Assembly: GCF_037902255.1 (NCBI RefSeq)
Contig: NZ_CP147990.1
Coordinates: 674,751 to 738,750, forward strand
Reading direction: 5' to 3'
DNA: 64,000 nt
Source of the DNA: Candidatus Electrothrix sp. GW3-4
GTDB taxonomy: Bacteria; Desulfobacterota; Desulfobulbia; Desulfobulbales; Desulfobulbaceae
Shown: in pieces, positions 205-42,421 of the stretch
Layout of the letters: each line of letters starts with the position of its first letter
Position numbering within the stretch: the first letter of the stretch is position 1
Notes under the pieces: generated by a model
The model's database searches: none
Seen by the model: only the letters and a program-made list of their open reading frames with translations
What the model was told of the DNA's origin: nothing
Position numbers and translations under genes: made by a program

Positions 205-531
205 ATGAAGGCACTCCGCACTCTGAAGCAGGTGCAGAATGGGCAGGTTCACCTGCATCTGCCCAAACAGTTCTGGGGACAGCAGGTTGAAATCATTGTG
301 CTCTCCGGGGCGCAGCAGGAAGGGGGTGAGGAGGCCGGAGCCTCTCTGCGCGGCTGTTTGCGGCAGTACGCGAATCCATCCCTGGCTGCGCAGGAAGAGG
401 GGGCTTGGGGCACTGCGGTGGAGGAAGCAGGATGGCGAGAACTGACTCCGTGCCGCTATGTCTCCTGCGTACCTTGCCGCGCTGCCCGTACCTGTGCCAA
501 TTCCTCGCGCCATTTCTCCAATAAAGGATAG
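205..531 (+). CDS. Small ORF; first ~40 aa resemble a SpoVT/AbrB-type (VapB-like) antitoxin fold (…QVQNGQVHLHLPKQFWGQQVEIIVL…). The C-terminal part is low-complexity and overlaps the convergent STAND gene.
   Basis: ORF track. Loose motif resemblance to VapB/MazE-type swapped-hairpin antitoxins. No PIN/toxin partner downstream. Confidence 0.2.
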   Translation: MKALRTLKQVQNGQVHLHLPKQFWGQQVEIIVLSGAQQEGGEEAGASLRGCLRQYANPSLAAQEEGAWGTAVEEAGWRELTPCRYVSCVPCRAARTCANSSRHFSNKG

Positions 532-2522
532 TCGATCCAATCTGCAATTTGCACAGCTACTGTAAGGTATTTCTCTGCTTGAACAAGGTTAAGTATATCT
601 TTATAGGTAAGCCCAATATTAAAGTATGTCACTGCTTCTCCGACCCTATCACCAGACTGCCGCCGTAGAACCAAGGCTTGTTCTAAATATTCCATGGCCT
701 TGTTATGATTTTCTTGAGAATGGTATATCGCAGCGATGTTGTTCAAGGTTTCTCCTGCTCCAATCTTGTCACCAGCCGCCCATCTGATAGGAAGAGCCTC
801 CTCTAAATATACCAAGGCTATCTCCCATTCATCTTGGTGCATATAAACGTTGGCAATATTATTCAAGGTCGTGCCTTCCCCTTCTTGACTACGGATTTCC
901 CGCCATATTTTTAGACTCTGCTTGAAATGGTGCAAGGCCAAGTCGTATCCTTCTTGAAGGGTGTGACTTTTTGCTATATTATTCAATGTTGCACCTTCTC
1001 CCTGCTTGTCACCTAACTCACGATATATTGGCAGGCTTTTCTCATACCATTCTAAGGCTTTCTTATGATCACCGCATCTCCCACAAGTGTACCCAAGACT
1101 GTTCAAGCACCAAGCTTCATCTCTACGACCGCCTATGTGTCGGGCAGCAGTTAAAGCTATTTTTAAGGCGATTTGTCGATCCACCCAATGTCCCTGCCTG
1201 TCTAAATACCTTGAGATTAAGTAAACAAAATCTGACACTTCATCCCACAGCTCATTATTTAGACAAGCCTCAAGGAAGCGCAAGTGGTGTCCCCGCTCAT
1301 CATTGGTGCAAACATATCCCTTTCTTCCGGGTAGCATATTAGAAACACAGAACCATTTATAATGGTCAGATAGCAATAGCAAGTTCTTCCTGCTCAAAGC
1401 CAGCTCAGTTCGGGCATAGGTATGCACCAACGCATGGCTTATCTGCCAGCGTTCCTCTTGCTTCTCCAGCAAACCATAATTAACCAGCTCACCCAACGCC
1501 TTCCGTGCCCGGCGTTCATCATCCTCAAGCACAGCCGCCACCGGTTCACGGGCTATCGGCGCAAAGGCCAAGGTACCTGCTACGCCCAGCGCAAGGCGGG
1601 CATCCTCGCTCACCTGCGCCACGCTACGCCGCAGCAGCAAGGCGGCATTCTCCTCCTGATGCGTACCGTCACCCAGTTCCTTGAACGGCTCTTTTTCCAA
1701 CCACTTCAAGTAATCTGCCGCGCTCTCACCCGTGCTGCTGAGATACCGGCCCGCAATGCGCAAACCCACGGGCCAGCCATCCAATATCTTGCAGATGCCC
1801 TGCACGCTTGCATCATCCGTCGTTGTAGGGGCACAGCGTGCTGTGCCCTTACTATGTAGCCGGAAGACCTCAGCTGCGGGCTGCTCCTCCAGCGGGGTCA
1901 GGTCAAGCCGGAAGCCCTGGGCATCGTCCCGCTTCCGACTGGTGATCAGCACCCCGCAGGTACTGCGCAGATCAAGCACGGCCTTGAGGTCATCCGCCTC
2001 CTCGGTTCCGTCCAAGATGATCAATGCCTTCCTGCCTGAGAGCACCTGCCGCACTGTGCTGGCAAGGCCCGTCTTTGCCTCCACCTGAAAGGCTACGCAA
2101 ATGGCTTGCAGGGCCTGCTCTGTTTGGGGATGTCCATAGAAGCTATGAAAGACTATGCCGTCCGGGAAGCGGGCTTTCTCCAGCTTATCCACTGCCTGCG
2201 CCGCCAAGGCTGACTTTCCCATGCCGCCCGGCCCGCACACAGCAACGACCTTGCCGGGTTGGAGCTGCTCCAATAAATCGGCAAGCTCCTTATCTCTGCC
2301 GAGGAAGCAGGCATCAAGGGGCTGGAGTTGACGGGGAATAACGGGCGGGGGAGTAGGCGGCGGCTGGTGATAATGAATGCCACCCTCCACATGGGCATGA
2401 TTGCCCAGCACACCAATTTGTGCATTCTGGGCATTTATCTGCTTACCGATAGCCTCATTCCCTTGGCCGATATTCTGCTCACCATCGCCACTGTGGTTGA
2501 AGGTATTGTCAGTCGTTCCCAT
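456..2522 (-). CDS. STAND NTPase of NB-ARC type with C-terminal TPR repeats and a short Q/N/G-rich N-terminal extension.
   Basis: Walker A GPGGMGKS, Walker B ALIILDG, then VLITSR (TTR-like) and GWPVGL (GxP-like) motifs. At least 5 TPR-like repeats (TLNNIAxxY…) in the C-terminal half. Start taken at ATG 2522 (MGTTDNTF…), which has AAGGA 11 nt upstream. The longer ORF start at 2624 is possible. Confidence 0.8.
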   Translation of the reverse strand: MGTTDNTFNHSGDGEQNIGQGNEAIGKQINAQNAQIGVLGNHAHVEGGIHYHQPPPTPPPVIPRQLQPLDACFLGRDKELADLLEQLQPGKVVAVCGPGGMGKSALAAQAVDKLEKARFPDGIVFHSFYGHPQTEQALQAICVAFQVEAKTGLASTVRQVLSGRKALIILDGTEEADDLKAVLDLRSTCGVLITSRKRDDAQGFRLDLTPLEEQPAAEVFRLHSKGTARCAPTTTDDASVQGICKILDGWPVGLRIAGRYLSSTGESAADYLKWLEKEPFKELGDGTHQEENAALLLRRSVAQVSEDARLALGVAGTLAFAPIAREPVAAVLEDDERRARKALGELVNYGLLEKQEERWQISHALVHTYARTELALSRKNLLLLSDHYKWFCVSNMLPGRKGYVCTNDERGHHLRFLEACLNNELWDEVSDFVYLISRYLDRQGHWVDRQIALKIALTAARHIGGRRDEAWCLNSLGYTCGRCGDHKKALEWYEKSLPIYRELGDKQGEGATLNNIAKSHTLQEGYDLALHHFKQSLKIWREIRSQEGEGTTLNNIANVYMHQDEWEIALVYLEEALPIRWAAGDKIGAGETLNNIAAIYHSQENHNKAMEYLEQALVLRRQSGDRVGEAVTYFNIGLTYKDILNLVQAEKYLTVAVQIADWIDYPLLEKWREELAQVRAARQGTQET

Positions 2523-2693
2523 AGATGATCTTGTTTCCTTTGATTGAGACCCCAGGTATCTTTTTATTATCCTAATCGTATAGTCTGTTTTATAAAAAAG
2601 GGCGAATGAAAAGGTTTTTTGCATCCTTGATGTGAATCAGGTAGAGTGATAGCCAGAACGGTTTCTTTGTCAAATTAACTGGACGTAATGTCA

Positions 2694-2985: not shown

Positions 2986-3294
2986 ATGTTTAATCTGCAA
3001 CTGCAAGTCGATCCAAAAACGGAACAACGCCTGAAAGCAATTCTAGCGCATATGCAAAATGAAGAAACCTTTGCGCAAAACATCATTGCCTACCAAATTG
3101 CTGAACTTCAAAAAAGTCTGCTCAATATCCGGCTTGATTTAAAAGGCTTTGAAAATAAATATAAGCAGTCGAGTGAAAAATTCTACCGCCTGTATGAACA
3201 AGGACAGACCGATGACAGCGAAGATACGATGTTGTGGGCAGGTCTTTACGAAATGCTGCGTAATAATGAAGAGAGGCTGCGGGAACTCGCATGA
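2986..3294 (+). CDS. Hypothetical 102-aa protein, first gene of a 2-gene overlapping cassette.
   Basis: ORF track. Stop/start overlap ATGA with the next gene. Predicted helical/charged. No recognisable motif. Confidence 0.5.
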   Translation: MFNLQLQVDPKTEQRLKAILAHMQNEETFAQNIIAYQIAELQKSLLNIRLDLKGFENKYKQSSEKFYRLYEQGQTDDSEDTMLWAGLYEMLRNNEERLRELA

Positions 3295-3665
3295 TTGACC
3301 TCTACTTCCGGAATGTTGAACATATTATCCAGGAGTTTCCAAATATCCGCAGCTCCGCTCTCAAGAAAAAACAGTATAACGCCAAACAGGGATATATCAG
3401 CGGCTCTGTCCATTTTGACTCTGGAAGCCGTCTTGAGTTTATGGAACTCAAAGACACAGACAGATCAGCAAAGATAAAATATCGCTATCAGTATATGGAT
3501 CAACAGAATACCTGTCTCTTCCGATACGATAATGCACCACATCATCCCGAGATAACAACTCATCCTCACCATAAGCATAATGGGGAGGAGATTATCGCAA
3601 GTTGTGAGCCGACGTTATTTGATATTTTACTTGAGATTGCCGAACAAGAACGTGAAGACGAGTAG
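3291..3665 (+). CDS. Hypothetical 124-aa protein with a His-rich HHPEITTHPHHKH segment, second gene of the cassette.
   Basis: ORF track. Translational coupling to the upstream ORF. Family not recognised. Confidence 0.5.
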   Translation: MIDLYFRNVEHIIQEFPNIRSSALKKKQYNAKQGYISGSVHFDSGSRLEFMELKDTDRSAKIKYRYQYMDQQNTCLFRYDNAPHHPEITTHPHHKHNGEEIIASCEPTLFDILLEIAEQEREDE

Positions 3666-3757: not shown

Positions 3758-6700
3758 GTGGCAACCAGAAACGTTTTCCAAGAAAAACAATTGTGCGTAA
3801 CGCCACTAACACCTATGCAGCTCAACTACCCTACACAGCTCCCCATCACCGACCGCAAGGACGAGATCGTCCAGGCCGTTCGGGAACATCAGGTCATCGT
3901 TATTGCAGGCGATACCGGGTCCGGCAAGACAACCCAGCTCCCCAAGATGTGCCTGGAGGCAGGCCGGGCAGGGGAGGGGACCATGATCGGCTGTACCCAG
4001 CCCCGCCGTATTGCCGCCCTGTCAGTCACCGAGCGGGTGCAGGAGGAGCTGGGGCAGGTCCGGACGGTGGGGTCCAAGATTCGCTTTCAGGATCGCACCG
4101 GCCCGAAAACCCGGATCAAGTTCATGACCGACGGGATTCTTCTGGCCGAGACCCGGGGCGACCGCGATCTGCGGGCCTACGACACCCTGATCATTGACGA
4201 GGCCCATGAGCGCAGCCTGAACATCGACTTTCTGCTCGGCTATCTCCATCAATTGCTGGCCCGCCGTCAGGACCTCAAGCTGATCATTGCCTCGGCCACC
4301 ATTGATACCGAGAAATTCAGTAAGCATTTTCACGATGCCCCGATTATCCAGGTGGAAGGACGCACCTATCCGGTCACGGTGGAATACTGCCCCCCGGACA
4401 ACGATGACGATGAAAGCAATCAGGATATCGACCGGCTGGTTGCTGACCAGATTGTCAGGCTTATGGCGCGGCGCGGTGGGGATATCCTGGCCTTTCTCCC
4501 CACGGAACGGGACATCCTGGATACGGTGGCCTTGCTGCGTAAGGAGCTGGCTGACCGGGCCCTGATTCTGCCCCTGTTCGGACGGCTCCAGGGCGGGGAG
4601 CAGCGGCGTATTTTTCGTTCTGCGCAGCGGCGCAAGATCATTGTGGCCACCAATGTGGCAGAGACCTCCATCACTGTGCCGGGCATAGAATGCGTGGTGG
4701 ACACTGGCTTGGCGCGGATCGCCCATTATAATGTGCGGGCCGGGACCACCCATCTGCCCGTGACCAGGATTGCCAGGGCCAGTTGCGACCAGCGAGCCGG
4801 GCGTTGTGGTCGGGTAGGGCCAGGGCGTTGTATCCGCCTCTACAGCGAGGAGGATTATCTTGCCCGCGATGAGTTCACCCTGCCGGAGATCCAGCGTTCC
4901 AATCTGGCTGAGGTTATTCTCCAGATGCTCAGTCTTCGCCTGCCTGAGCCGCGCAATTTTCCCTTTATCGATCCGCCAGCACCCAGAGCGGTCAATGACG
5001 GCTTTCGTATTCTTCGGGAACTGGGGGCCCTTGACAGCGAGCACCAACTCACCGAGCGGGGCCGGATCATGGCTCGCCTGCCCCTGGACCCGCGCATCTC
5101 CCGGATGATTATCGAAGGCGCGGAACTGGGCGTGCTCCGGGAAACCACGATCATTGCCGCAGCCCTGGCTATTCAGGACCCCCGTGTCCAGCCGCCGGAT
5201 AAGCTGGAAAAGGCCCGGCAGGCCCACCGGGCCTTCAATTATCCCGGCTCGGATGTCATGACCCTGGTGAATATGTGGGATACCTGTCGAGGTGAAGCCC
5301 TGCCTTCGCCCGGTTCGTCTGATAAAGGGCAGAGTCGCCAGGATGATAAAGAGCAGACACGGGAAGCTGCCCCTACACCATCAGCCGGTCAGTTGCGCCG
5401 TTTTTGCGAGGCCAATTTCTGCTCCTGGCAGCGGATGCGGGAATGGTTTGATATTCATGAGCAGATCCTCCGTATCCTCAAGCAGCATAAGGAATTTGTC
5501 TCGGCCTTGGATCGTATGGCCGAATCGTCGTCTTTGCAGAATAATGTAGGGACACGGCATGCCGTGTCCCTACCGGAATCGCAGGATCGTAGGGGCGAAC
5601 CTTGTGATCGCCCGTTACGTTCCCCATCAAACCGTAGGGACGAACCCCTGTGTTCGCCCGGTTTATCTGATAAAGGGCAGACACGGGGATCTGCCCCTAC
5701 AGCACCAACCCTGGTTCATCAGGCCCTGACCGCAGGATTCCTGCGCAACATTGCCCTGCGCAAGGAAAAGAATACCTATCAGATCTCCGGCAACCGGGAG
5801 GCCATGCTCTTTCCCGGTTCCGGCCTGTATAATAAGGGGGGACAGTGGATCGTGGCAGCGGATTTTGTCCATACCTCGCAGCTCTTTGCCCGCATGGCCG
5901 CCACGATTGAGGTGGACTGGCTGGAACGCCTCGGCGGTGATCTCTGCAAACGCTCCTACTCGGACCCGCATTGGCAGAAAAAGTCCGGGCAGGTCATTGC
6001 CCTGGAAAAGGTCTCCCTGTTCGGTTTGGTGATTGCTGCGGATCGGCGGGTGAACTACGGGCGCATCAGCAAGAAAACAGCAGCGGAAGCCAAGGAGATT
6101 TTTATCCGGGAGGCTTTGATCCCCGGTGAACTCAAGGGCAAATATCCCTTTCTTGAGCATAATCTGGCCCTGGCTCGGCAACAGGAAGAGCTGGAGGAAC
6201 GCCTGCGTAGGCGCGGCATCATGACTGATGAGCAGGTTCTGTACGAGTTCTATGATCAGCGGCTGGAACTGGTGTATGACCGCTTCACCCTGAACCGCTT
6301 TTTGAGCAGGAAACGCAAGCAGGCCAAGCCCGGTGAAGAAGCGGACGGCTTTCTCAGGATGACAGAGGAAGATCTTTGCCAAAGCCAACCGGAAAGCGAT
6401 GAGCTGTATCGCTTTCCGAAAACCCTGACCACACCTCAAGGCGAGTTGCGTCTTTCGTATACCTTCCACCCTGGTCAGGATGACGACGGCGTGACTGTGG
6501 ATATCCCGGTCTCCTGCTGTCCGGCCCTGTCACCGAATCTCTTTGAGTGGCTGGTGCCCGGTCTGCTGGAGGACAAGGTGGCGGCCTTGCTCAAGGGGCT
6601 GCCCAAACGCCTGCGCAAGCTCTTTGTCCCTTTGCCGGACACGGCGGCCCTGCTCATGGACGGTATGGATCTCTACCAAGGTTCCCTGTACCCGGCCCTG

Positions 6701-7873
6701 GAGCGTTTTCTTCTCCGTCATTTTCAGGTCAGGGTGACACGGGCGGACTGGCAATTGGAGAATCTCCCCCTCCACCTGCGTATGCGTTTCCGTCTCTGCG
6801 ACGAGCAGGGAAAGGCTCTGTATTACACGCGTGATTTCCATAAGCTTGCTCTACATTGCGGTTCAATGCGGCAGACAATGCAGGGAGGGCAGATGCGGAA
6901 GGTCGAAGACCTGCCAGAAAGAAAGAATATCCAGGTATGGGATTTTGCCGTGGCTCCGCGCCCTCTGCCTGCACGGGACGAGCATAACCGGGTCACGGGC
7001 CTCTACTATCCGGCTTTGTTCCTGGGATTGAGCAAGGGGCAGGAGCAGCAGCTTTGCCTGAGGTATATTGCCGACCCTGAGCAGGCAGTTCGAGAGAACA
7101 GAAAGGGGCTTCGTTTCCTCTATGGGCAGTATTTCAGCAAGGAGTTTAAGGCGGTTGCCAAGGAATGCAAGGCAGCGGTGGCCGGGCATACCGCCTCCTG
7201 GCTCTCTCTTGGGATGAAGGCCGGGGCCGGAGAAACCAGGGACCTGTTGCTCAACTGTATTGTGGACAGCCTGTTTCAGATTAGCGGGGACCTACCGAAC
7301 AAGACTGGCTTTGAGCTGATCCTTGACGATCTCCGGGAGCAGGGAGTGACCCGACTGGCGAGGGAGCAGCTCAATCAGGTGCTGGATCTGCTGGCGGAAC
7401 GCCGCAAGACTCAGGTCGCCCTGACGCAAAGTAAACAACGGGCCGGGAAAAGTCGGAGTGCGGATCAGGCCCGCTTTGCCGAATATGAGGACTTACTTGA
7501 GAGACTGGTACCTGCGGATTTCCTTGATCGATTTTCTCCAGAAGAGGCCGGTGACCGAAAGCGGTACCTTCAGGCCCTGGCCAAGCGGGTAGAACGGGCC
7601 GAGCATAGTCCGCATAAGGATGCGGATAAGGTCAAGAGGGTTCAGCCCTTTGCTGAGCATCTCCGTCAGCTGGATCGGAAAGAGGCGGAGCAGAAAGCAG
7701 GCGGGAGCATTTCGGCTCCCTGCCGGGAGGCTGTGGTCCTGTATCGCCGCATGGTGGAGGAGTTCCGTATATCTGTCTTTGCCCCGGAAATCGGTACAGC
7801 CATGCCAGTCTCAGAAAAACGGCTGAAGCAGCAATGGAAGCTGGTGGAGGAGAGCTGCAGGAGGGTGGAATAA
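3758..7873 (+). CDS. hrpA: ATP-dependent RNA helicase HrpA (DEAH-box), carrying a low-complexity insertion.
   Basis: GDTGSGKTTQLP motif I, DEAHERS motif II, SAT, and the HA2/OB region. An alternative start at ATG 3815 (MQLNYP…) is possible. Residues ~515-650 are encoded by repeat-derived DNA (see the repeat feature). Confidence 0.9.
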   Translation: MATRNVFQEKQLCVTPLTPMQLNYPTQLPITDRKDEIVQAVREHQVIVIAGDTGSGKTTQLPKMCLEAGRAGEGTMIGCTQPRRIAALSVTERVQEELGQVRTVGSKIRFQDRTGPKTRIKFMTDGILLAETRGDRDLRAYDTLIIDEAHERSLNIDFLLGYLHQLLARRQDLKLIIASATIDTEKFSKHFHDAPIIQVEGRTYPVTVEYCPPDNDDDESNQDIDRLVADQIVRLMARRGGDILAFLPTERDILDTVALLRKELADRALILPLFGRLQGGEQRRIFRSAQRRKIIVATNVAETSITVPGIECVVDTGLARIAHYNVRAGTTHLPVTRIARASCDQRAGRCGRVGPGRCIRLYSEEDYLARDEFTLPEIQRSNLAEVILQMLSLRLPEPRNFPFIDPPAPRAVNDGFRILRELGALDSEHQLTERGRIMARLPLDPRISRMIIEGAELGVLRETTIIAAALAIQDPRVQPPDKLEKARQAHRAFNYPGSDVMTLVNMWDTCRGEALPSPGSSDKGQSRQDDKEQTREAAPTPSAGQLRRFCEANFCSWQRMREWFDIHEQILRILKQHKEFVSALDRMAESSSLQNNVGTRHAVSLPESQDRRGEPCDRPLRSPSNRRDEPLCSPGLSDKGQTRGSAPTAPTLVHQALTAGFLRNIALRKEKNTYQISGNREAMLFPGSGLYNKGGQWIVAADFVHTSQLFARMAATIEVDWLERLGGDLCKRSYSDPHWQKKSGQVIALEKVSLFGLVIAADRRVNYGRISKKTAAEAKEIFIREALIPGELKGKYPFLEHNLALARQQEELEERLRRRGIMTDEQVLYEFYDQRLELVYDRFTLNRFLSRKRKQAKPGEEADGFLRMTEEDLCQSQPESDELYRFPKTLTTPQGELRLSYTFHPGQDDDGVTVDIPVSCCPALSPNLFEWLVPGLLEDKVAALLKGLPKRLRKLFVPLPDTAALLMDGMDLYQGSLYPALERFLLRHFQVRVTRADWQLENLPLHLRMRFRLCDEQGKALYYTRDFHKLALHCGSMRQTMQGGQMRKVEDLPERKNIQVWDFAVAPRPLPARDEHNRVTGLYYPALFLGLSKGQEQQLCLRYIADPEQAVRENRKGLRFLYGQYFSKEFKAVAKECKAAVAGHTASWLSLGMKAGAGETRDLLLNCIVDSLFQISGDLPNKTGFELILDDLREQGVTRLAREQLNQVLDLLAERRKTQVALTQSKQRAGKSRSADQARFAEYEDLLERLVPADFLDRFSPEEAGDRKRYLQALAKRVERAEHSPHKDADKVKRVQPFAEHLRQLDRKEAEQKAGGSISAPCREAVVLYRRMVEEFRISVFAPEIGTAMPVSEKRLKQQWKLVEESCRRVE
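5547..5661. repeat. Three tandem REP-like palindromic units inside hrpA, translated in frame: 5547-5573 GTAGGGACACGGCATGCCGTGTCCCTAC (perfect 28-bp palindrome), 5589-5618, and 5634-5660.
   Basis: Palindromes read directly in the sequence. A related unit TGTAGGGGCGAATCCCTGTGTTCGTCC sits intergenically at 43925-43951. Confidence 0.65.
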
Positions 7874-7974: not shown

Positions 7975-8862
7975 TTACAAAAAACCTATTTTTAGCCTTT
8001 CTTTTGGCCATGCCCACGCTGTCAGATTGCTCATAAATGCTCCTGCAAAACACCCGCAATTTGAACAATCGGCATTATTCCCAAAGCATCGTCTCGTGTT
8101 CCATGAAGCATCAAAATGACGTGCCTCATCGCCCCAGTAACACCAGCCTCGATGGTCGGTTTTTTCATACCAGCTGATCATTGAATCATTCAGCAAAAAG
8201 TCGTTCGGATAGCGCGATTTCACTCTTCGAAGCTCCTGAAGAATCTCTCTACGGAGACTCTTTGCAGGAACTATGGGGTCGGTATCTTTGTCATCCCCGG
8301 TTTTAGACATGTAGATATTGCAGACAACGCCTGAAAAATTGTGTTCCTGAGAAGCCCGTACCAGCTGTTCAAGTTCAGTGTAATTTTGGCCGTTGACTGT
8401 CATATTGATGATGATCCGCTTATCACCGGAATAGTTTTTCAGAATTTTAGAAAAAACGCCTTGGCCTCGTATTTTGTCATTGGTTTTCTCGGTGCCCTCA
8501 ACAGATACATACAGAGGATGTTTGAATTCCAGAGGAATTTTTATAGTTCCATTTGTGATAATATACACAAAGGGGAAAATTTTATCCGCCAACATCAACA
8601 CATCTGGTCTTAACGCTGGTTCACCACCTACTAACAAAACGAGGCGAACTCCAGACTGATAGAGATCATGCAACCGTTCTTCCCATTGTGTTATAGGGGT
8701 AACCTCTTTTGAAAAATTTTTTTTCCCATAAAAATGATAACAATGCTCACACCTGAGATTACAGGCATCAGTGACATCAAACTCAGCCATAAACTTGGTT
8801 CCAAATACTTTCCGTTTCAGCTCAAAGAAGCCAAGTTGCGTTAACTTTATGAATTTATCCAC
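7975..8862 (-). CDS. Radical SAM enzyme with a C-terminal Cys-rich auxiliary-cluster (SPASM/twitch-like) region.
   Basis: CNLRCEHCY CxxxCxxC motif near the N-terminus. C-terminal CYWGDE…CFGNNADCSNCGCF. No precursor-peptide ORF found nearby. Confidence 0.8.
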   Translation of the reverse strand: MDKFIKLTQLGFFELKRKVFGTKFMAEFDVTDACNLRCEHCYHFYGKKNFSKEVTPITQWEERLHDLYQSGVRLVLLVGGEPALRPDVLMLADKIFPFVYIITNGTIKIPLEFKHPLYVSVEGTEKTNDKIRGQGVFSKILKNYSGDKRIIINMTVNGQNYTELEQLVRASQEHNFSGVVCNIYMSKTGDDKDTDPIVPAKSLRREILQELRRVKSRYPNDFLLNDSMISWYEKTDHRGWCYWGDEARHFDASWNTRRCFGNNADCSNCGCFAGAFMSNLTAWAWPKERLKIGFL

Positions 8863-9084
8863 TTTTATTTGGTTGTTTTATTGGTTACATTGATGACCAA
8901 GCTTCATGAGCATACCTGTTACTTTGCGTGTGCAGTGCGCGTTTGGTGCAAGCCGCTGCCCCTGTTGATAAAGGGGTGGCGAGTTCATCTCAATACCCGC
9001 ACCTTGTCAAAGGTATAGCTGACTTTTCGACTGATTTCAATTGAATTCATGTAACCTGTATTAACGTTTGACGGAGCAATTTCC

Positions 9085-9190
9085 GGTCTCGCTCTTTGCC
9101 CCGGAAATTGGCACGGCCATGCCTGTCTCTGAGAAACGGCTGAAGGAGCAATGGCAGCAGGTGGAGGAGAGTTGTCGGCGGGTGGAGTGA
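9085..9190 (+). pseudogene. Diverged duplicate of the hrpA 3' end, encoding …LFAPEIGTAMPVSEKRLKEQWQQVEESCRRVE*.
   Basis: About 85% nucleotide identity to 7770-7873. The differences are mostly synonymous. Confidence 0.65.
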
Positions 9191-9304
9191 GGTTGCCCGT
9201 TTGAAAAAAATATCCAGAAACGTGTAGATGTTGATTTGTTTTTTGAAGTATTCTGTTAGCTGCTGTTCAATCCGTCTATAATCTCATCAACGATTACATC
9301 CATC

Positions 9305-10455
9305 ATGATCAAAAAACTCGTTGTTTCCAATTTCCGCAGTCTTGGTCCTGACATTCATTTTGAACCGGGCAAGCTTTCTTTTTTATAGGACCGAACGGAT
9401 CAGGAAAGTCAAACATTCTTGATGTGCTCTCTTTTGTGAGGGATTCGGTTATGCAGGGCCTACCTGCCGCTATCACCCATAGACGTGGTATCGACAGTGT
9501 ACGGAGACGCAGTCATGGTCGTCCTTTTGATGTACACATAGAATTTCAGCTTCTTATTGATCAGCAGCATGTAACGTATGAATTTATTATTACCGGTGAT
9601 CGCCTCGAAGAGTATAGGGTAAAGACAGAAAAGGCGATTATGTACGGACCGAAGGGCGAGGAAAAGGTCTCATTTATCAGAAATGGTCATGAGTGGGATG
9701 GGCCGGAAGGAGTGGCGCCCTTTATGGATGAGCAATCCTTGGCCTTGACGGCACTGGGAGGAACAAAACAGTTCAAACCCTTGGTTGATTTTCTTTCAGG
9801 TCTAACCGTTTATTCTATTTTTCCGGATACCCTTCGGATTCCTCAGCGTTTTGATTCAAGCCATCCACTTAAAGAGCATGGAGAGAACTGGGTATCTATT
9901 TTACGGGAATTGGTGAAAGAAAAGTACGCCAAAGATGATATTGTTACAGGATTGAGGAAGCTCACCGGAGATATTGAGGATGTCCGAGTGGCGAGCGCAG
10001 CAGGATATCTGATAGCTGAGTTTAAGCAGCAGGTCAAAGGACAAAAGGCGAAACGTTGGTTTGACGCAGCTCAGCAGTCGGATGGAACGCTTAGGGTTGC
10101 AGGATTATTGACGGCCTTGGTGCAAACACCGGCTCTTCCGGTCATCGGTGTGGAGGAGCCAGAACTTACCGTTCATCCCGGAGCTCTGCCCATGCTCTAT
10201 GATTATCTGCGGCAGGCCAGCGAGATGTCGCAGGTCTTTGTTACTACGCATAGTCCGATAATCCTTGATGTTGTTGATGTTGAAAACGATGTTGTTTTTG
10301 TCGTCAATCGGGTGGATGGTAAAACAGATGTAAAAAGGATGGCGGATACCCAGCTGGAACCCGTTCGCAAGAGCTTGTTGCGATTAGGGGATCTCTTTAT
10401 GTCAGGTGACTTGCAACTTTCTCTTTTTGACGATGATACCCCCTGGAGGGAATGA
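9305..10455 (+). CDS. AAA family ATPase (OLD/ABC-like, AAA_21-type), interrupted by a -1 frameshift in a T6 homopolymer at 9379-9384.
   Basis: The frame from ATG 9305 gives MIKKLVVSNFRSLGPDIHFEPGKLSFL*. The adjacent frame continues …FFIGPNGSGKSNILD (Walker A) to 10455. One extra T would restore a single ~383-aa ORF. Confidence 0.75.
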
Positions 10456-11072
10456 TTGTGGCTGGCAAAAAGGGGTATCTGCTTGTGGAAGGACACGGGG
10501 AAGTGGAGGCTGCCCAGAATTTTATTACCCGCCTGAGTCACGATATCGGGATATACGACATTCCCTGGAGTAAACCCTTGCGTTGGACCAATCTGCATCA
10601 ATGGCAAGGGCATAAATCGGGAGGGGTAATGGCAGGTGCTGAATTTATTCGCACAAAGCCAGATGCTGGGGCATTGTTGATTCTTCGAGATGAGGATAAT
10701 CAATGTCCCAAGGAGCTTGCGCCGCAGATCGCAAGGCAATTGCGAATGCTTAAACTTCCCTTTCCAACGGCTTATGTGTTGTTGCATCCAGAATATGAAG
10801 TGCTCTTTCTTCCTTGTCTCGAGCAGATGGGGTTTCCGTCTTGGGACAGGGATTCGTGGGAGGCTCGGCGAGGAATTAAAGAATGGCTTTCCGGGAAGTT
10901 GCCCAAAGGACGTTCGTACAAGCCCACTGTGCAGCAGTTTGCTTTAACCCGGAAACTTGACTTCTCGATGCTGCGAGTAGCAGACGTGCCCTGTTTCGGT
11001 AGCTTGGAAAGAGGACTTCGGTTTCTATCAGATCACTCAGGCCAAACCGGTAAAGTATACCCGGTAGAGTGA
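10452..11072 (+). CDS. DUF4276-like protein (TOPRIM-like: LVEGHGE … LRDEDNQ), translationally coupled to the ATPase.
   Basis: ATGA overlap with the ATPase. N-terminal LVEGxxE motif and a downstream DxD-like acidic motif, typical of DUF4276/OLD-TOPRIM proteins. Identified from memory of the family. Confidence 0.6.
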   Translation: MIVAGKKGYLLVEGHGEVEAAQNFITRLSHDIGIYDIPWSKPLRWTNLHQWQGHKSGGVMAGAEFIRTKPDAGALLILRDEDNQCPKELAPQIARQLRMLKLPFPTAYVLLHPEYEVLFLPCLEQMGFPSWDRDSWEARRGIKEWLSGKLPKGRSYKPTVQQFALTRKLDFSMLRVADVPCFGSLERGLRFLSDHSGQTGKVYPVE

Positions 11073-11112
11073 GTCGTTCCCTACACTGCTCGCATAGTGT
11101 GTTTTAAACAAG

Positions 11113-11142
11113 CTGAAATGGCAATGGAAGCTGGTGAAGTGA
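11113..11142 (+). other. Short degraded remnant of the hrpA 3' end (CTGAAATGGCAATGGAAGCTGGTGAAGTGA).
   Basis: Matches hrpA 7829-7855 (…CTGAAGCAGCAATGGAAGCTGGTGGAGGAG…). Confidence 0.4.
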
Positions 11143-11196
11143 GGAATGTCTCCCTCGGTCCAGCTCTCCTATCCTGTGGGTGTTAGTGGGCGAATC

Positions 11197-11949
11197 TCAG
11201 ATACTTTCTATCGCGGCAAACTCCGGTTCATGAAGTGGGATGACATAATCCGCCATGTCCCGAACCTTAAGCATGAGGTCATAGGCGGCATAGGTATCGG
11301 TGCTGGTACCCGGCGGAATGACCTCCATCTCCATTGCCTTGACCTGTAACGGTGGCTCGAAGTTTTCTCGGATGACGCAAAAGCCGGTGATGGCGGTTTT
11401 ACCGCGTTCCGTGTCGATGAATACGGTCATGCCGCCCGGTGTATGGGCCGGGGTGTGCATCACTGAGATGCCTGGAAAAAGCTCCTGATCCGTGCTCACG
11501 GTTCTGATCTGTCCGGCCTCGCGGATTTCATAGATAAAGTCCTCCACATAGCGGTAATCCAGGGGGTGGGGATTATTGATGGTCTCCAGCTCTTTTTCGT
11601 GGATATAGAACACCGCATTACTACATTTATAATCGTTTTCGCAATGGTCAGTATGCAGATGGGTATGGATGACCACGTCAATATCTTCCGGTTTAAGTCC
11701 GTATCTCGCTAACCCCTCCTCAAGGGTGTAAATCTTCCCGCCGATGGCCTTTTCCCGGTCTTCGGAGATGACCGGATGCATTTCACCTGTGTCAATCAGG
11801 ATCTTTTTTTCACCACCTGCAATATACCAGCTGTAGATCGGGATGGTGTAAGGTGTGCCGTAGTCATACTGATAGGTCATCATGCCTTTGTCAAAGACCT
11901 TGGTGCCCACCACAATGGGGTGAATGGTATATTTGTTCATTGTGTTCAT
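11197..11949 (-). CDS. Metallo-beta-lactamase-fold hydrolase, AiiA-like N-acyl-homoserine lactonase type.
   Basis: HTHLHTDHCEN (HxHxDH) zinc motif. Length ~250 aa from MNTMNKY. Confidence 0.7.
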   Translation of the reverse strand: MNTMNKYTIHPIVVGTKVFDKGMMTYQYDYGTPYTIPIYSWYIAGGEKKILIDTGEMHPVISEDREKAIGGKIYTLEEGLARYGLKPEDIDVVIHTHLHTDHCENDYKCSNAVFYIHEKELETINNPHPLDYRYVEDFIYEIREAGQIRTVSTDQELFPGISVMHTPAHTPGGMTVFIDTERGKTAITGFCVIRENFEPPLQVKAMEMEVIPPGTSTDTYAAYDLMLKVRDMADYVIPLHEPEFAAIESI

Positions 11950-12137
11950 TTGGTTTGAAAGAATGGATTTGTAAGTTTGAGTGTCAAGCTTGATATAAAA
12001 AAGGATAAAAAGCAAGCGATTAACCGGAAGCGATCTCTTTTTTTGACTGGGGAGACTATGGGAAAAAGGGAGAACGTGGTATATTATTTGTCAGAAGTCT
12101 TCTTCTGATCGTCAACGTCTTCTCTTGAGGTGATATT

Positions 12138-36946: not shown

Positions 36947-39805
36947 ATGTTCCCCCTAAAAAACAACGAGCGCAATATGGTGCCCAATAAAACCCCGGAA
37001 CAGGTCGCCCGCGACAACATCGACGACCTGCTCAAGGCCGCAGGCTGGCAGGTCCAGGATAAAAACAGGATCAATCTGCATGAGGGCAAAGGCCAGGCTG
37101 TCAGGGAATATCAAACCGCAGCTGGTCCAGCTGACTATGTCCTGTTCGTGAACAAAAAGCCTGTCGCGGTTATTGAGGCCAAGCGGGCCAGCAAGGCTGA
37201 GAATATCACCACGGTAGAAGAACAGAGCGCAGGCTACGCCAGTGGCCAACTCAAATGGGTCGGCAAAAACGAGCCCTTGCCCTTCCTCTACCAGAGCACT
37301 GGCATCATTACCCGTTTCACTGATAATCGAGATCCGAAACCGCGTTCCCGCGAGGTCTTCACCTTTCATCGTCCTGAAACCCTCCAGGAATGGGCTGAGC
37401 AGGGAGAGGGCCTCAGAGCCCGTCTGACCCAGATCCCCTTGCTCAATCCCTTCCAACTTCCACCCAAGGAGCTGGATCTGCGCGACTGTCAGGAATCGGC
37501 GATCAGCAACCTTGAGGAATCCTTCAAACTGGATAAACCCAGGGCTCTGATCCAGATGGCCACCGGCGCAGGCAAGACCTATACCGCTATCACGGCCATG
37601 TACCGGATCCTCAAGCATGCCAAAGGCAAGCGCATCCTCTTTCTGGTGGATACCAAGAATCTGGGCGAACAGGCCGAGCAGGAAATGCTCACCTTCACCC
37701 CGCAGGATGACAACCGCAAGTTCACCGAGCTTTACGCAGTACAGCGCCTGAAAAGTGGCAATGTGCCCAAGGATGCCCAGGTCTGTATCAGCACTATTCA
37801 GCGTATGTACTCCATCCTCAGAGGTGAAGAGCTGGATGAGGCCCTGGAGGAACGCAATCCGGCCGAACAGCAGACCAAGCCCAAAGAGCCCATGCCGGTT
37901 GCCTATAATCCCAAGGTGCCGATCGAGTTTTTCGACTTCATCTTTATCGATGAATGCCACCGCTCCATCTACAACCTCTGGCAGCAGGTGCTGGATTATT
38001 TTGACGCCTACCTGATCGGCTTGACCGCCACCCCGGATAATCGTACCTACGGCTTTTTCAAGCAAAATGTGGTCAGTGAGTACACCCATGAAAAGGCCGT
38101 GGCTGATGGGGTTAACGTGGGTAATGAGGTCTATTTCATCGACACCAGGATCTCACAACAGGGCGCACAGCTGCGAGCCAGGCAGCAGGTAGAGCTGCGG
38201 GAAAAGAGGACCCGCAAGGGGCGTTGGCAGGAACAGGACGAAGACGAGGCCTATTCTGCCAAGCAGTTGGACCGGGATATTGTCAATCCAAGCCAGATCA
38301 GAACGGTGATCCGGGCCTTTAAAAACAGCCTGCCGGAGATCTTTCCCGGTCGTGATGAGGTTCCCAAGACCCTGATCTTTGCCAAGACCGACAGCCATGC
38401 CGATGATATTATTCAGACCCTGCGGGATGAATTTGGGGAAGGCAATGCCTTTTGCAAGAAGGTCACCTATAAGGCGGCTCAGGATAGGAAAGACAAAGCG
38501 GGCAAGATCATCCAGCAAGGCGAAGCAGCGAAATCCATCCTTTCCCAGTTCCGCAACGACTATAATCCCCGCATCGCGGTGACCGTGGACATGATCGCCA
38601 CCGGCACTGATGTCAAGCCGCTGGAGTGTCTGCTCTTTATGCGGGATGTTAAGAGCAAAAACTACTTTGAGCAGATGAAAGGCCGGGGAACCCGGACCCT
38701 GGAGCATGACGACCTGCGTAAGGTCACGCCCTCGGCCAGGAGTGCCAAGACCCACTATGTTATTGTCGATGCCATTGGTGTCACCAAGTCCCTCAAGACT
38801 GCCAGTCAGCCGCTCATCACCAAGCCCTCGGTTCCTCTCAAGGATCTGGCAATGGGCGTGATGATGGGCACCAGCGATACGGACACGGTCAGTTCTCTGG
38901 CTGGTCGTCTGGCACGTTTAAATAAGCAACTGGATGCAGAGGATCAGGCCAGAATCGAAAAGGCCGCCGGAGGTGTGGAGCTGCCCCGGATTATCAACGA
39001 CCTGTTTGATGCCATTGACGCGGATCGGGTCGAAGCCAAGGCCCTGGATCTGGCCAGGCAGCCTGCGGGAACAGATCCTGGAGATGAGAAGCGGCAAGAG
39101 GCCCAGGCAGAGCTCGTCAGTGCGGCAGCCGATGTCTTTACCGGCGATTTGATAGAGCTGATTGACTCCATCAGGAGAGAAAAGGAGCAGAAAATCGACC
39201 ACGATAACCTGGATGAAGTGCTCCGGGCTGAGTGGGGCAAGGATTCGGCAGAGAACGCCCAGCACTTGGTTGAGGATTTTGCCGCGTATATTGAGGAGCA
39301 GAAAGATACCCTGGATGCTCTGGAGATCTTTTATGATCAGCCCCAGCGTCGAAGAAAGATCACTTACGACATGATCCAGGAGGTGCTGGATACGCTCAAG
39401 GCGGACAGGCCCGCCCTTGCGCCCCTGCGCATCTGGAATGCCTACAGCCAGCTGGATGATTATCAGGGCAAGCAACCCATAAATGAGTTGACCGCACTGG
39501 TTGCCTTAATCCGCCGAGTCTGTCATATTGATTCGTCTTTATCACCCTATGATGGAACGGTGCGCAGGAATTTTCAGGATTGGGTGATGAAGCACCATGC
39601 TGGTGCTGGTGAGAAGTTCAATGAGGAGCAGATGCAGTGGTTGCAGATGATCCGGGATCATATTATCAGCTCGTTTCATTTTGAGCGGGATGATCTGGAG
39701 ATGGCACCGTTTGATAGTCAGGGAGGGTTGGGGAAGATGTATCAGTTGTTTGGGGATGGGATGGATGGGTTGATTGATGAGATGAATGAGGGGCTTGCCG
39801 CTTGA
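36947..39805 (+). CDS. hsdR: Type I restriction enzyme R subunit (HsdR).
   Basis: N-terminal nuclease domain (VIEAKRAS). Helicase motifs QMATGAGKTYTAI, FIDECHRS, LTATP. Confidence 0.85.
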   Translation: MFPLKNNERNMVPNKTPEQVARDNIDDLLKAAGWQVQDKNRINLHEGKGQAVREYQTAAGPADYVLFVNKKPVAVIEAKRASKAENITTVEEQSAGYASGQLKWVGKNEPLPFLYQSTGIITRFTDNRDPKPRSREVFTFHRPETLQEWAEQGEGLRARLTQIPLLNPFQLPPKELDLRDCQESAISNLEESFKLDKPRALIQMATGAGKTYTAITAMYRILKHAKGKRILFLVDTKNLGEQAEQEMLTFTPQDDNRKFTELYAVQRLKSGNVPKDAQVCISTIQRMYSILRGEELDEALEERNPAEQQTKPKEPMPVAYNPKVPIEFFDFIFIDECHRSIYNLWQQVLDYFDAYLIGLTATPDNRTYGFFKQNVVSEYTHEKAVADGVNVGNEVYFIDTRISQQGAQLRARQQVELREKRTRKGRWQEQDEDEAYSAKQLDRDIVNPSQIRTVIRAFKNSLPEIFPGRDEVPKTLIFAKTDSHADDIIQTLRDEFGEGNAFCKKVTYKAAQDRKDKAGKIIQQGEAAKSILSQFRNDYNPRIAVTVDMIATGTDVKPLECLLFMRDVKSKNYFEQMKGRGTRTLEHDDLRKVTPSARSAKTHYVIVDAIGVTKSLKTASQPLITKPSVPLKDLAMGVMMGTSDTDTVSSLAGRLARLNKQLDAEDQARIEKAAGGVELPRIINDLFDAIDADRVEAKALDLARQPAGTDPGDEKRQEAQAELVSAAADVFTGDLIELIDSIRREKEQKIDHDNLDEVLRAEWGKDSAENAQHLVEDFAAYIEEQKDTLDALEIFYDQPQRRRKITYDMIQEVLDTLKADRPALAPLRIWNAYSQLDDYQGKQPINELTALVALIRRVCHIDSSLSPYDGTVRRNFQDWVMKHHAGAGEKFNEEQMQWLQMIRDHIISSFHFERDDLEMAPFDSQGGLGKMYQLFGDGMDGLIDEMNEGLAA

Positions 39806-39807
39806 TA

Positions 39808-40203
39808 ATGGAAGAAGGTAGAGGGAAGAAGGAAGAATTTGTCGATCTTCGCCAGCGAACCAAAGCGTTTGCCCTTCGAGTTATTCGTTTATACGTCAGC
39901 TTGCCCAAAAGGACAGAAGCGCAAGTCATTGGCAAACAGTTATTGCGTTCAGGGACTTCCGTTGGTGCGAATTATCGGGAAGCTTATCGCGCAAGAAGTA
40001 AGGCGGAATATATTTCTACTGTTGGAATTTCGTTGAGAGAAGTTGAAGAGACCGGGTATTGGTTTGAGCTGCTGGTTGAGGCAGGTATTGTTCCTGAAAA
40101 TAAATTACGTTCTTTGCAGCAGGAGTGCGGGGAGCTAACGGCAATTTTTGTTTCTTCGATTAAAAAGGCGAAAAGAAGTAGCAGCCGGGGTGGAGCTGAA
40201 TGA
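39808..40203 (+). CDS. Four-helix-bundle protein (23S rRNA intervening-sequence protein family), commonly embedded in type I RM loci.
   Basis: Family pattern …ALRVIRLYVSLPKRTEAQVIGKQLLRSGTSVGANYREA…. Confidence 0.7.
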   Translation: MEEGRGKKEEFVDLRQRTKAFALRVIRLYVSLPKRTEAQVIGKQLLRSGTSVGANYREAYRARSKAEYISTVGISLREVEETGYWFELLVEAGIVPENKLRSLQQECGELTAIFVSSIKKAKRSSSRGGAE

Positions 40204-40216
40204 AGAAGGTAGAAGG

Positions 40217-41770
40217 ATGAAGGATAAGAATATTACCTTGGGCGATATTTCCGATACTGATATTAATCGCAGCGGGCCTTCTGGTGCCGAGTTTGTTTAT
40301 GTCGATATTAGCAGTGTAGATCGATCTTCTAAAACTATTATCAACCCAAAAAAATTAAAAACTTCAAAAGCTCCAAGTCGAGCAAAACAGCACTTGAAAA
40401 GTGGCGATGTTCTAGTTTCTATGACTCGTCCGAATCTCAATGCTGTCGCTCTGGTTCCCCCAACGTTAACCGGTGCAATTGGCTCAACAGGCTTTCATGT
40501 TTTACGCTCAAAATGGGTAGAACCTAAATTCATATTTTATCTTGTTCAGTCCCGTGAATTCATTGATGACATGAGTCTGAGAGTTCAGGGTGCATTGTAT
40601 CCAGCAGTACGACCAGCCGACATTTCTTCCTTCTTCCTTCCTCCTTTTTCCTTGAGCTATCAGCGAAGCGTAGTAGCTCGCCTCGAAGAACTCTTCTCCG
40701 AGCTGGATAAAGGCATCGAAAGCCTGAAGACCGCGCGGGAGCAACTCAAGGTCTATCGTCAGGCATTGCTTAAACATGCCTTTGAAGGCAAACTCACCGA
40801 ACAATGGCGGAAAGACAACGCGGATAAGCTGAAAACAGCGGACCAGCTTTTGGAACGCATCAAGCAAGAGCGCGAAGCTCGCTATCAGCAACAACTGGAA
40901 GCATGGAAAGTAGCGGTTAAGCTGTGGGAGGTTGGTGGGAAGGAGGGGAAGAAGCCGAGGAAACCAGCCGGTTTCAAGGAGCTTCCACCAATTGACGAAA
41001 CTGAGCTTGATGTTTTGCCAGAGTTACCTCAAACTTGGATATATCGTCGTTTGGCAGAAATTGCGCAAATTGGCTCTGGCATGTCAGTCAGCAGGAACAG
41101 AAAACTCAATAAGCCTGTGGAGGTTCCATATTTACGAGTAGCGAATGTTCAGCGGGGTAGCCTTGCACTTGATGAAGTGAAGACCATGCTGATAGAAGAA
41201 GGACAACTTGAAGCTCTCTTACTGGAAAAGTGGGATGTACTTTTTAATGAGGGCGGAGATAGAGACAAATTAGGTAGAGGCTGGATCTGGGAATCACAAA
41301 TTGAGAGATGTATCACTCAGAATCATGTGTTCAGAGCCACTACCTATCTTGGTGGTGAGGTTCATTCAAAATTTGTTTCTCATTGGGGAAACACTTATGG
41401 TCAGAACTATTTTGATAAAGGTGGTAAGCAAACCACTAATCTGGCGTCTATCAACAAGACTGTCTTGAGCATGTTTCCGATTCCAGTTCCTTCAGAAGAG
41501 GAACAGGAGCAAATCATTAAAGAGCTTGAAGAAAAGATGTCTACACTGGATTCATTCGAGATGGATATAGATACATCTCTCACAAAATCCGAAGCCCTTC
41601 GCCAATCCATCCTCAAAAAAGCCTTCTCCGGCCAACTGGTCCCCCAAGACCCCAACGACGAACCCGCCTCCGTCCTGCTAGAACGCATCGCCAAAGAAAA
41701 GGAAGCAGCCGCAGTCAAGGCCAAAAAAGCCAAGACCGTGAAGAAGAGAACGAAAAAAGGATGTACATGA
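40217..41770 (+). CDS. hsdS: Type I RM specificity subunit (HsdS) with two target-recognition domains and central/terminal coiled-coil repeats.
   Basis: Start at ATG 40217 (MKDKNITLGDISD…). Conserved LPPxxEQxxI spacer motifs. Repeated EALRQSILKKAF-type helix. Confidence 0.8.
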   Translation: MKDKNITLGDISDTDINRSGPSGAEFVYVDISSVDRSSKTIINPKKLKTSKAPSRAKQHLKSGDVLVSMTRPNLNAVALVPPTLTGAIGSTGFHVLRSKWVEPKFIFYLVQSREFIDDMSLRVQGALYPAVRPADISSFFLPPFSLSYQRSVVARLEELFSELDKGIESLKTAREQLKVYRQALLKHAFEGKLTEQWRKDNADKLKTADQLLERIKQEREARYQQQLEAWKVAVKLWEVGGKEGKKPRKPAGFKELPPIDETELDVLPELPQTWIYRRLAEIAQIGSGMSVSRNRKLNKPVEVPYLRVANVQRGSLALDEVKTMLIEEGQLEALLLEKWDVLFNEGGDRDKLGRGWIWESQIERCITQNHVFRATTYLGGEVHSKFVSHWGNTYGQNYFDKGGKQTTNLASINKTVLSMFPIPVPSEEEQEQIIKELEEKMSTLDSFEMDIDTSLTKSEALRQSILKKAFSGQLVPQDPNDEPASVLLERIAKEKEAAAVKAKKAKTVKKRTKKGCT

Positions 41771-42421
41771 TGGCTGTGCCTGGCGTTGAAACACCCTTTC
41801 GGCAGTCCCTCCGGGACGGGTTGAGTTTTCGGCAGGGAATGCATCAAAAAGACGTACAGCGTCCCGGAGGGACAGCCCGGTAATAGCCCCGTGATTTATC
41901 GCGGGGTGTTGTGTGTCCGACATCCTGTTGTATAAATAAATCCCCAGGGTTAAAACCCTGGGCTATGTTCGTTCGTCCCTTCGGGATGCTGTTTCCCGGA
42001 AATCCCCGCCCTGGAGGGGCGATCTATAATAGCCCACCGTTTTAACGGTGGGTGGCCCTGAATCAGTTATTCGAAATTTTCGAATAACTGCTGCCGATTG
42101 AGTTGAATGGAAATCAGTTATCCGAAATTTTCGGATAACTGCCGCCGATGGAAAAAATCACACCAGAATCATTCATGATCGTCTGTATACGTCCGATTTT
42201 TACTGGTGCCCAAGCTCTGCTTGGGTATCTCTGAATACAGAAGCTCCGGCTTCGGGAAATGAAGCGGAGCTTCAGAAAATGCAGTTCCCAAGCCGGAGCT
42301 TGGGAACCAGAGAAATAACTGCCGCTGATGGAAAAAACACACCAGAATCATTCAGAATCGTCTGGAGACGTCCGGTTTTGACCTTCTGATACAATAAACA
42401 AGCAGAGAGCGAAAAGAAAAA
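41771..42421. repeat. 650-bp non-coding, highly structured insert between hsdS and hsdM. It contains the following.
- 14-bp long-range inverted repeat at 41805-41818 / 41860-41873.
- Perfect palindromes at 42033-42052, 42064-42091 (28 bp CAGTTATTCGAAAATTTTCGAATAACTG) and 42116-42142 (27 bp).
- About 70-bp direct repeats at ~42135-42200 and ~42315-42380.
- Several GC hairpins at 42200-42310.
   Basis: Read directly from the sequence. No ORF over 40 aa. Confidence 0.7.

Follow-up and report, generated by a model that had tools for sequence, protein, structure and literature searches.

A probable HEC-01-type ABC ATPase/TOPRIM-like gene pair with a frameshifted ATPase gene downstream of hrpA in Candidatus Electrothrix sp. 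GW3-4

HEC-01 is a catalogued candidate anti-phage family that first came to light inside Hma defence systems and combines an ABC ATPase with a TOPRIM protein carrying the OLD metal site (Payne et al. 2024, bioRxiv 10.1101/2024.01.29.577857). MADS3-4 and AbiL are also listed as systems in which an ABC ATPase is paired with a TOPRIM protein, and in PARIS the ATPase AriA senses the trigger and releases AriB, a tRNA-cutting TOPRIM dimer. The TOPRIM superfamily has been found to include DUF4276, of which Mad4 is a homologue (PMC12065111). Here a pair of genes at positions 9305–11072 of a 64,000 nt stretch of the genome of Candidatus (Ca.) Electrothrix sp. GW3-4 (contig NZ_CP147990.1, positions 674,751–738,750; the window) is compared with these systems. 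The locus is probably a two-gene HEC-01-type module, composed of an SMC/Rad50-like ABC ATPase and a small TOPRIM-like protein of the DUF4276 family, that has recently become a pseudogene in this strain. As such it is an ordinary, damaged new member of the family.

Assignment of the gene pair to HEC-01

The two genes are adjacent and co-oriented. The ATPase gene is split by a 1 nt deletion at 9378–9384, and the partner gene is whole; the same gene order was found in all relatives examined. With one base restored, the ATPase gene encodes a protein of 383 amino acids (aa), which matched the HEC-01A model of PADLOC (PDLC04178) with an E value of 1.3e-91 and 305.6 bits, residues 2–371 of 383 being aligned to profile positions 9–381 of 399. 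This score was far above those of the AriA, AbiLi, mad3, Old and GajA models in PADLOC-DB: the AriA match (8.9e-32) lay approximately 200 bits lower, mad3 was matched at 4e-22, and the matches to the Old, GajA and Eco8 models were weak. In Pfam, the repaired protein matched AAA_21 (4e-32) and AAA_15 (2.5e-17), in agreement with the first-pass annotation, which had been made from the letters of the DNA and had described an ATPase of the AAA_21/ABC type. ABC_tran was matched only over the P-loop and the best matches were not the nucleotide-binding domains of transporters, so that a subunit of an ABC transporter was ruled out.

The main body of the ATPase (9388–10455, forward strand, in the shifted frame and ending with TGA at 10453–10455) carries a Walker A motif (GPNGSGKS), a signature-like SDGTLR, a Walker B/catalytic VEEPE and the His of an H-loop. 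Across 43 homologues the residues G29, N31, G32, G34, K35 and S36, the stretch S259–R264 (SDGTLR), E284, P286 and E287, and H316 were invariant. Structurally the protein was nearer to the heads of SMC, Rad50 and PtuA than to OLD, and among defined families its closest relatives were the defence ATPases AriA, AbiLi, MAD3, PtuA, OLD and GajA. No close relative was found among solved structures by sequence and profile searches, which gave matches at the level of the P-loop only.

The partner gene (10452–11072, forward strand) encodes a putative nuclease of 206 aa, related to DUF4276 and TOPRIM-like, with the motifs LVEGHGE (containing E13) and RDEDNQ (containing D80-E81-D82). It matched the PADLOC HEC-01B model PDLC04196 with an E value of 1.9e-23 (residues 11–175 against profile positions 7–175 of 197) and PDLC04200 with one of 1.2e-17. 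The residues E13, D80, D82, E114 and E116 were invariant across 52 homologues. In a structure model with a pLDDT score of 91.4, E13 ends strand 1, and D80 and D82 end the third main strand. A Glu after strand 1, a DxD after strand 3 and a three-layer α/β fold, the features expected of TOPRIM, were all present, and the modelled placement of E13 and D80/D82 is that of the TOPRIM pattern. The suggestion of the first-pass annotation that these two motifs recall the TOPRIM glutamate and DxD was thus borne out by the HEC-01B match, by the conservation of the acidic residues and by the predicted fold.

In Pfam, DUF4276 (PF14103) was the only match of the partner at E values up to 0.1, and TOPRIM_OLD and DUF4435 were not matched; nor was AriB in PADLOC. 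Precomputed PF14103 matches were present in many partner homologues at 59–75 % identity, one of which (P0112) is named as a DUF4276 family protein in UniRef. A profile built from the partner found 1572 representatives at 50 % identity, 690 of them at an E value of 1e-10 or better. The best 150 of these 1572 matches were 72–276 aa long, so that none has room for a fused ATPase of about 380 aa, and ATPase and partner were separate open reading frames (ORFs) at the window locus and in every relative examined. Sequence and profile searches revealed no relative of the partner among solved structures.

Of the described systems, HEC-01 shares with the locus two adjacent co-oriented genes, one for an ABC ATPase (about 380 aa) and one for a TOPRIM-like protein (about 200 aa), full-length model matches of both components and the same OLD-like acidic metal site. 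The locus differs in that the copy in the window follows a housekeeping helicase gene on its own, not inside an Hma system, and in its frameshifted ATPase gene. PARIS, the best-understood working model, likewise has an AAA_15/21 ABC ATPase and a TOPRIM effector on separate genes, but its effector is AriB (DUF4435), whereas the partner here is HEC-01B/DUF4276; membership of PARIS was ruled out by the missing AriB/DUF4435 match and by an AriA score far below that of HEC-01A. In MADS, the ABC ATPase Mad3 is of the AAA_15/21 type, and Mad4 is a homologue of DUF4276. The NCBIfam MAD3 equivalog was matched at 6.9e-26 with only 91.4 bits, against a cut-off of 420, and neither a methyltransferase nor any other MADS gene adjoins the pair, which ruled out MADS as well; around the pair lie hrpA, a radical SAM gene, a gene for a metallo-β-lactamase (MBL)-fold hydrolase and acs. 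Members of the OLD family (P2 Old, class 1/2 OLD, GajA and the effector of retron Eco8) also join an ABC ATPase to a TOPRIM domain with Glu and DxD. GajA of Gabija is a fused ATPase-TOPRIM protein, and the OLD and Eco8 proteins too are single polypeptides, whereas the window has two separate ORFs and no TOPRIM_OLD match, so that membership of the fused OLD nucleases was ruled out. The split arrangement had been likened in the first-pass annotation to both PARIS and Gabija; the former likeness stands, whereas the latter does not.

If the pair works as PARIS, OLD and Gabija do, the intact ATPase would dimerize on ATP and act as sensor and regulator, and the partner would be a nuclease that depends on metal bound by Glu13 and Asp80/Asp82. 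Phage infection would then release or activate the partner, which would cut DNA or tRNA and bring about abortive infection. We infer the defence role, the nuclease activity and the division into sensor and effector from these likenesses, and several observations weigh against the reading. The Pfam DUF4276 score of the partner itself (18.3 bits, E value 0.003) is below the gathering threshold of 30.2. None of the DUF4276 proteins in the literature covered has had a nuclease activity demonstrated. HEC-01 in E. coli gave no protection from any phage tested (Payne et al. 2024, bioRxiv 10.1101/2024.01.29.577857), and a defence role for the Electrothrix subfamily would be one by analogy, because the HEC-01 that did protect was another representative, from a cold seep, which defended E. 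coli B against at least one of three phages, T4, T5 and T7 (PMC12881386). These two studies also mean that pairs of an ATPase and a DUF4276 protein are not experimentally uncharacterized, as had been supposed in the first-pass annotation, whose interpretation was right at its core but overstated the novelty of the pair and needed correction on the lesion and on the history of the locus.

The stop codon of the ATPase gene and the start codon of the partner gene overlap as ATGA (10452–10455); translational coupling had been proposed in the first-pass annotation. A Shine–Dalgarno-like box, GGAGGG, lies at 10445–10450. It is only 1 nt away from this ATG but 7 nt away from the in-frame GTG 10458, which would give a protein of 204 aa. 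The arrangement ATG-ATT-(G/T)TG was kept in four Electrothrix loci. The spacing of the box to GTG 10458 suggests that the partner gene may have its own ribosome-binding site and may be independent of coupling; the intact partner gene could still be expressed in GW3-4. A promoter and terminator scan of 8850–11250 gave nothing above shuffled expectation.

The significance of the window copy beyond annotation is small, as the candidate family was already catalogued and the GW3-4 copy is broken. The family is broad, with about 1570 representatives at 50 % identity and no solved structure, and is a reasonable target for study. Mechanistic work could draw on the intact Electrothrix orthologues of Rat3 and MAN1_4 or on a GW3-4 copy after repair.

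The frameshift in the ATPase gene

The ATG at 9305–9307 opens a frame of 27 codons, with the translation MIKKLVVSNFRSLGPDIHFEPGKLSFL*, that is closed by TAG at 9386–9388. This stretch (9305–9388, forward strand) is a 5′ piece of the gene for the HEC-01A ABC ATPase, identified by translation and from a structure model. In a frame shifted by one base, translation is open from 9364 (FFFIGPNGSGKSNILD...) to the TGA at 10453–10455, and insertion of one base between 9364 and 9385 gave the ORF of 383 aa. The break by a single nucleotide, the coordinates, the peptides and the length of about 383 aa were all as the first-pass annotation had described.

The frameshift site, C-TTTTTT-A (9378–9385, forward strand), contains a run of six T (9379–9384) and, in alignments to six related copies, was one base shorter than in the relatives that read through (TCC TTT TTT or TCC TTC TTT). 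The site reads CTT TC- TTT TTT ATA in the window; it reads CTT TCC TTC TTT ATA in Ca. Electrothrix sp. Rat3 (L006/L007), in copy 1 of S24.Bin023 and in Ca. E. marina, CTT TCC TTT TTT ATA in copy 2 of S24.Bin023 and CTT TGC TTC TTT ATA in MAN1_4. Five of the six related Electrothrix copies read through the site, with intact ATPase ORFs of 382–383 aa; the deletion was also absent from the sixth, that of Ca. E. marina, which has lost its start codon. The frameshift was thus found in none of the six, and on these alignments it is specific to the GW3-4 strain. The exact pattern of the site had no match in the GTDB representative genomes. The first-pass annotation had placed the loss in the T run. 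Since the relatives read TCC or TGC before the T/C-rich stretch and the window reads TC-, loss of one C from the CC next to the T6 run, rather than of one T, would be the simplest explanation. The repaired protein KLSFFIGPNGSGKS is identical whether C or T is restored.

In a model of the Rat3 orthologue, which is 96 % identical, strands at residues 2–8, 17–19 and 24–28 lead into the P-loop, and the residues of the 5′ fragment make up the three β-strands that precede it. The deletion, at codon 26/27, would leave these three strands on one side of the break and the P-loop with the remainder of the ATPase on the other. Two truncated products could be made from the shifted frame, one of 356 aa from ATA 9385 and one of 334 aa from ATG 9451, which has a GAGGGA box before it. 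Judged by the model, neither would be expected to be an active ATPase, as the 356 aa product is without the N-terminal strands and the 334 aa product is without the P-loop. Because the ATPase is broken, the whole system in GW3-4 is most likely inactive, as a young pseudogene would be. The NCBI annotation of the genome includes WYD86334.1, a 356 aa ‘ATP-binding protein’ of Ca. Electrothrix sp. GW3-4, which corresponds to the window frame from ATA 9385; its start lies directly after the frameshift and it carries no pseudogene flag. Such an entry hides either a pseudogene or an assembly error.

Both genes were under strong purifying selection until recently. Codon analysis gave ratios of nonsynonymous to synonymous substitution (dN/dS) of 0.03–0.075 for the ATPase gene and 0.057–0.076 for the partner gene, at dS of 0.55–1.07, and the 356 codons after the lesion contained no second lesion. 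The low dN/dS and the lack of further damage imply that the break is very recent or an artefact. Were it a residual sequencing or polishing error, the ATPase gene would be intact and the HEC-01 pair functional in the living strain. For the GW3-4 genome (Ca. Electrothrix antwerpensis, GCA_037902255.1), R9.4 Nanopore reads called with Guppy 2.2.3 were assembled in Flye, and the result was polished in two rounds of Pilon with Illumina reads from filaments amplified by multiple displacement amplification, a step for which the authors reported difficulties (PMC11247825). A residual indel beside a homopolymer is conceivable in such an assembly, and the lesion adjoins the T6 run.

Logan assemblies of two sequencing runs bear on this point. 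That of SRR28154588 carries the same lesion and is identical to the window over 7845 nt. The contig of SRR28154590 begins inside the T run, at 9380; it has G5 shortened to G4 near 11562 and T7 to T6 near 11804, which break the MBL-fold gene (11197–12015, reverse strand). Homopolymer deletions of this kind are typical of Nanopore-type errors, and they have a bearing on the reliability of indels in the GW3-4 genome. We infer that SRR28154588 is the accurate Illumina set and SRR28154590 the Nanopore set. The former was taken as Illumina from its zero differences to the window, which counts on the side of an error. On the other side, the separate k-mer assembly of SRR28154588 gave the sequence that accurate short reads would give. 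Wherever the noisy SRR28154590 assembly differs from the window, the window holds the gene-preserving length, which indicates that polishing worked locally. No other split gene was seen in the 64 kb window; the ORFs at 39802–40203 and 40148–41770 were considered as a second such case and proved to be separate genes of a Type I restriction–modification system. The exact repaired ATPase protein was absent from a collection of 15 billion proteins, and the same locus has been damaged independently in two other Electrothrix genomes (see below). A sequencing error is for these reasons unlikely, and the lesion is probably a real mutation.

The deletion could also be read as a site of recoding or switching, at which −1 slippage on U UUU UUA, or slippage in the T run during transcription or replication, would yield a low level of full-length ATPase and so throttle or phase-vary a potentially toxic system. 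In the upstream frame, the bases T TTT TTA at 9379–9385 fit the X XXY YYZ pattern of a −1 slippery heptamer perfectly, and the TAG follows directly. The −1 product would be KLSFLIGPNGSGKS, in which Leu at position 27 is the family consensus. The 80 nt after the heptamer (9386–9465) fold with −24.6 kcal/mol (z −2.0; 11 of 200 shuffles fold as well), and the corresponding segment of four relatives whose genes are intact had no excess of structure (z +0.6 to −1.1). This statistic is marginal, being one of five sequences at a P value of about 0.05, and may be due to chance; the helix begins only 3 nt after the heptamer, upstream of which no Shine–Dalgarno-like stimulator was seen. The heptamer was produced by the deletion itself, and none of the related copies examined needs recoding at the site. 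A programmed frameshift as a conserved feature was rejected because no relative needs a change of frame and the downstream structure is marginal. A run of six T is short for phase variation or for slippage of RNA polymerase. Recoding at this site is accordingly very improbable; if it were true, a potentially toxic defence module would gain a throttled ratio of ATPase to nuclease or could be switched on and off. The predicted junction peptides KLSFFIGPNGSGK and KLSFLIGPNGSGK span the lesion, the latter being the product of −1 frameshifting, and the corresponding peptides predicted for the intact gene and for −1 frameshifting are LSFFIGPNGSGK and LSFLIGPNGSGK.

The hrpA locus and the history of the pair

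The pair lies directly after hrpA in Rat3, MAN1_4 and S24.Bin023, and in Ca. E. marina a gene for a 637 aa leucine-rich repeat (LRR) protein intervenes. Nucleotide identity to Rat3 was 86.6 % for the pair, 90.7 % for hrpA, 86.8 % for the MBL-fold gene and 87.4 % for acs. As the pair is as diverged from Rat3 as its flanks, these values indicate vertical residence: the pair appears to have been long resident just downstream of hrpA in Electrothrix, and any import would be ancient at best. Recent horizontal import of the pair was rejected because its divergence equals that of the flanking housekeeping genes, and the proposal of the first-pass annotation that the pair was imported as a cassette was abandoned on the same grounds.

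That proposal had relied on the position of the pair between two copies of the hrpA 3′ end. The copies are real but unequal. Repeat comparison identified copy 1 (7738–7869, forward strand; 7873 as the end of the feature) as the true 3′ end of the intact hrpA. Copy 2, a remnant of the hrpA 3′ end (9055–9186, forward strand), lies upstream of the pair and is 78–86 % identical to copy 1; its identity is 89.7 % with the hrpA end of Rat3, 95 % with that of Ca. E. marina and 93.5 % with a similar remnant in S24.Bin023, and it probably represents the native end of hrpA, displaced from its gene. Copy 3, which closely follows the pair (11112–11139, forward strand), is a remnant of only 28 nt that resembles the hrpA 3′ end, with 24 of 28 matches, an exact 16-mer and a BLAST E value of about 0.003; it may, on this weak resemblance, be a trace left when the pair itself was inserted long ago.

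Between copies 1 and 2 lies a radical SAM gene (7975–8862, reverse strand; Radical_SAM 4.9e-09), which is not part of the pair. The segment of about 1.2 kb that contains it is specific to GW3-4 among the Electrothrix loci compared, being absent in Rat3, S24.Bin023 and MAN1_4. The comparison points to this gene, and not the HEC-01 pair, as the recent import between the hrpA-end copies, and its insertion looks to have brought in or duplicated the hrpA terminus. Of the ORFs that lie between hrpA and acs, none was seen to encode a recombinase. The radical SAM gene did not reach the cut-off of any NCBIfam family, and its identification as a prokaryotic viperin was unsupported, since partial core matches of 43 and 39 bits were far below the family cut-offs.

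The site after hrpA has received different inserts across Electrothrix, namely the radical SAM gene, the LRR-protein gene or a second HEC-01 pair. The last of these was found in S24.Bin023 (L008/L013, 11788–14443), where the second, tandem pair has its partner cut to 125 aa and a remnant of the hrpA end lies between the pairs. In the metagenome-assembled genome of Ca. E. marina (L019, 3958–7418), the ATG of the ATPase gene has become ATA, Walker A carries P30L, and about 355 nt of the partner gene are gone. Together with the frameshift in GW3-4, these changes suggest that the site is variable in cable bacteria and that HEC-01 copies decay there repeatedly, independently in three lineages. The site provides an example of the turnover of defence genes in an uncultured multicellular bacterium.

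Upstream of hrpA are a gene for a 722 aa NB-ARC/TPR protein (456–2624, reverse strand), a signal transduction ATPase with numerous domains (STAND) NTPase, and a two-gene pair of a TumE toxin and its antitoxin (2986–3665, forward strand) that matches PDC-M44A/B in PADLOC. Together, the STAND NTPase, the TumE pair and HEC-01 make up a small defence-like neighbourhood around hrpA.

The constancy of the location could be taken to mean that the pair is not anti-phage in cable bacteria but a chromosomal ABC ATPase/TOPRIM module for the maintenance of nucleic acids, tied functionally to the hrpA locus. Its location after hrpA is shared by at least four Electrothrix genomes, with the divergence from Rat3 indicating vertical descent, and it has been subject to strong purifying selection; no integrase or phage genes are adjacent, and no defence was found for HEC-01 by Payne et al. 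(2024, bioRxiv 10.1101/2024.01.29.577857). In addition, the pair has only unrelated, ordinary metabolic genes around it in two planctomycete-like genomes. In those genomes, which are outside Electrothrix, it is however not next to hrpA. The discovery of HEC-01 within Hma defence systems, with one representative protective against phage (PMC12881386), the defence families that are closest to the ATPase, the STAND NTPase and TumE pair nearby, and the repeated loss and duplication at the locus, which are typical of defence genes, all argue for the anti-phage interpretation, and a maintenance function is improbable.

Within hrpA itself, direct repeats of about 40 nt, spaced 324–348 nt apart (5294–5710), encode a duplicated low-complexity insert rich in Ser, Asp, Lys and Gly. 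Elsewhere in the window, a Type I restriction–modification cluster occupies 36947–43921, with HsdR (952 aa) and HsdS (540 aa). Embedded in it is a gene for a four-helix ‘23S rRNA intervening sequence’ protein (39802–40203), and a downstream ORF of 499 aa possibly encodes HsdM.

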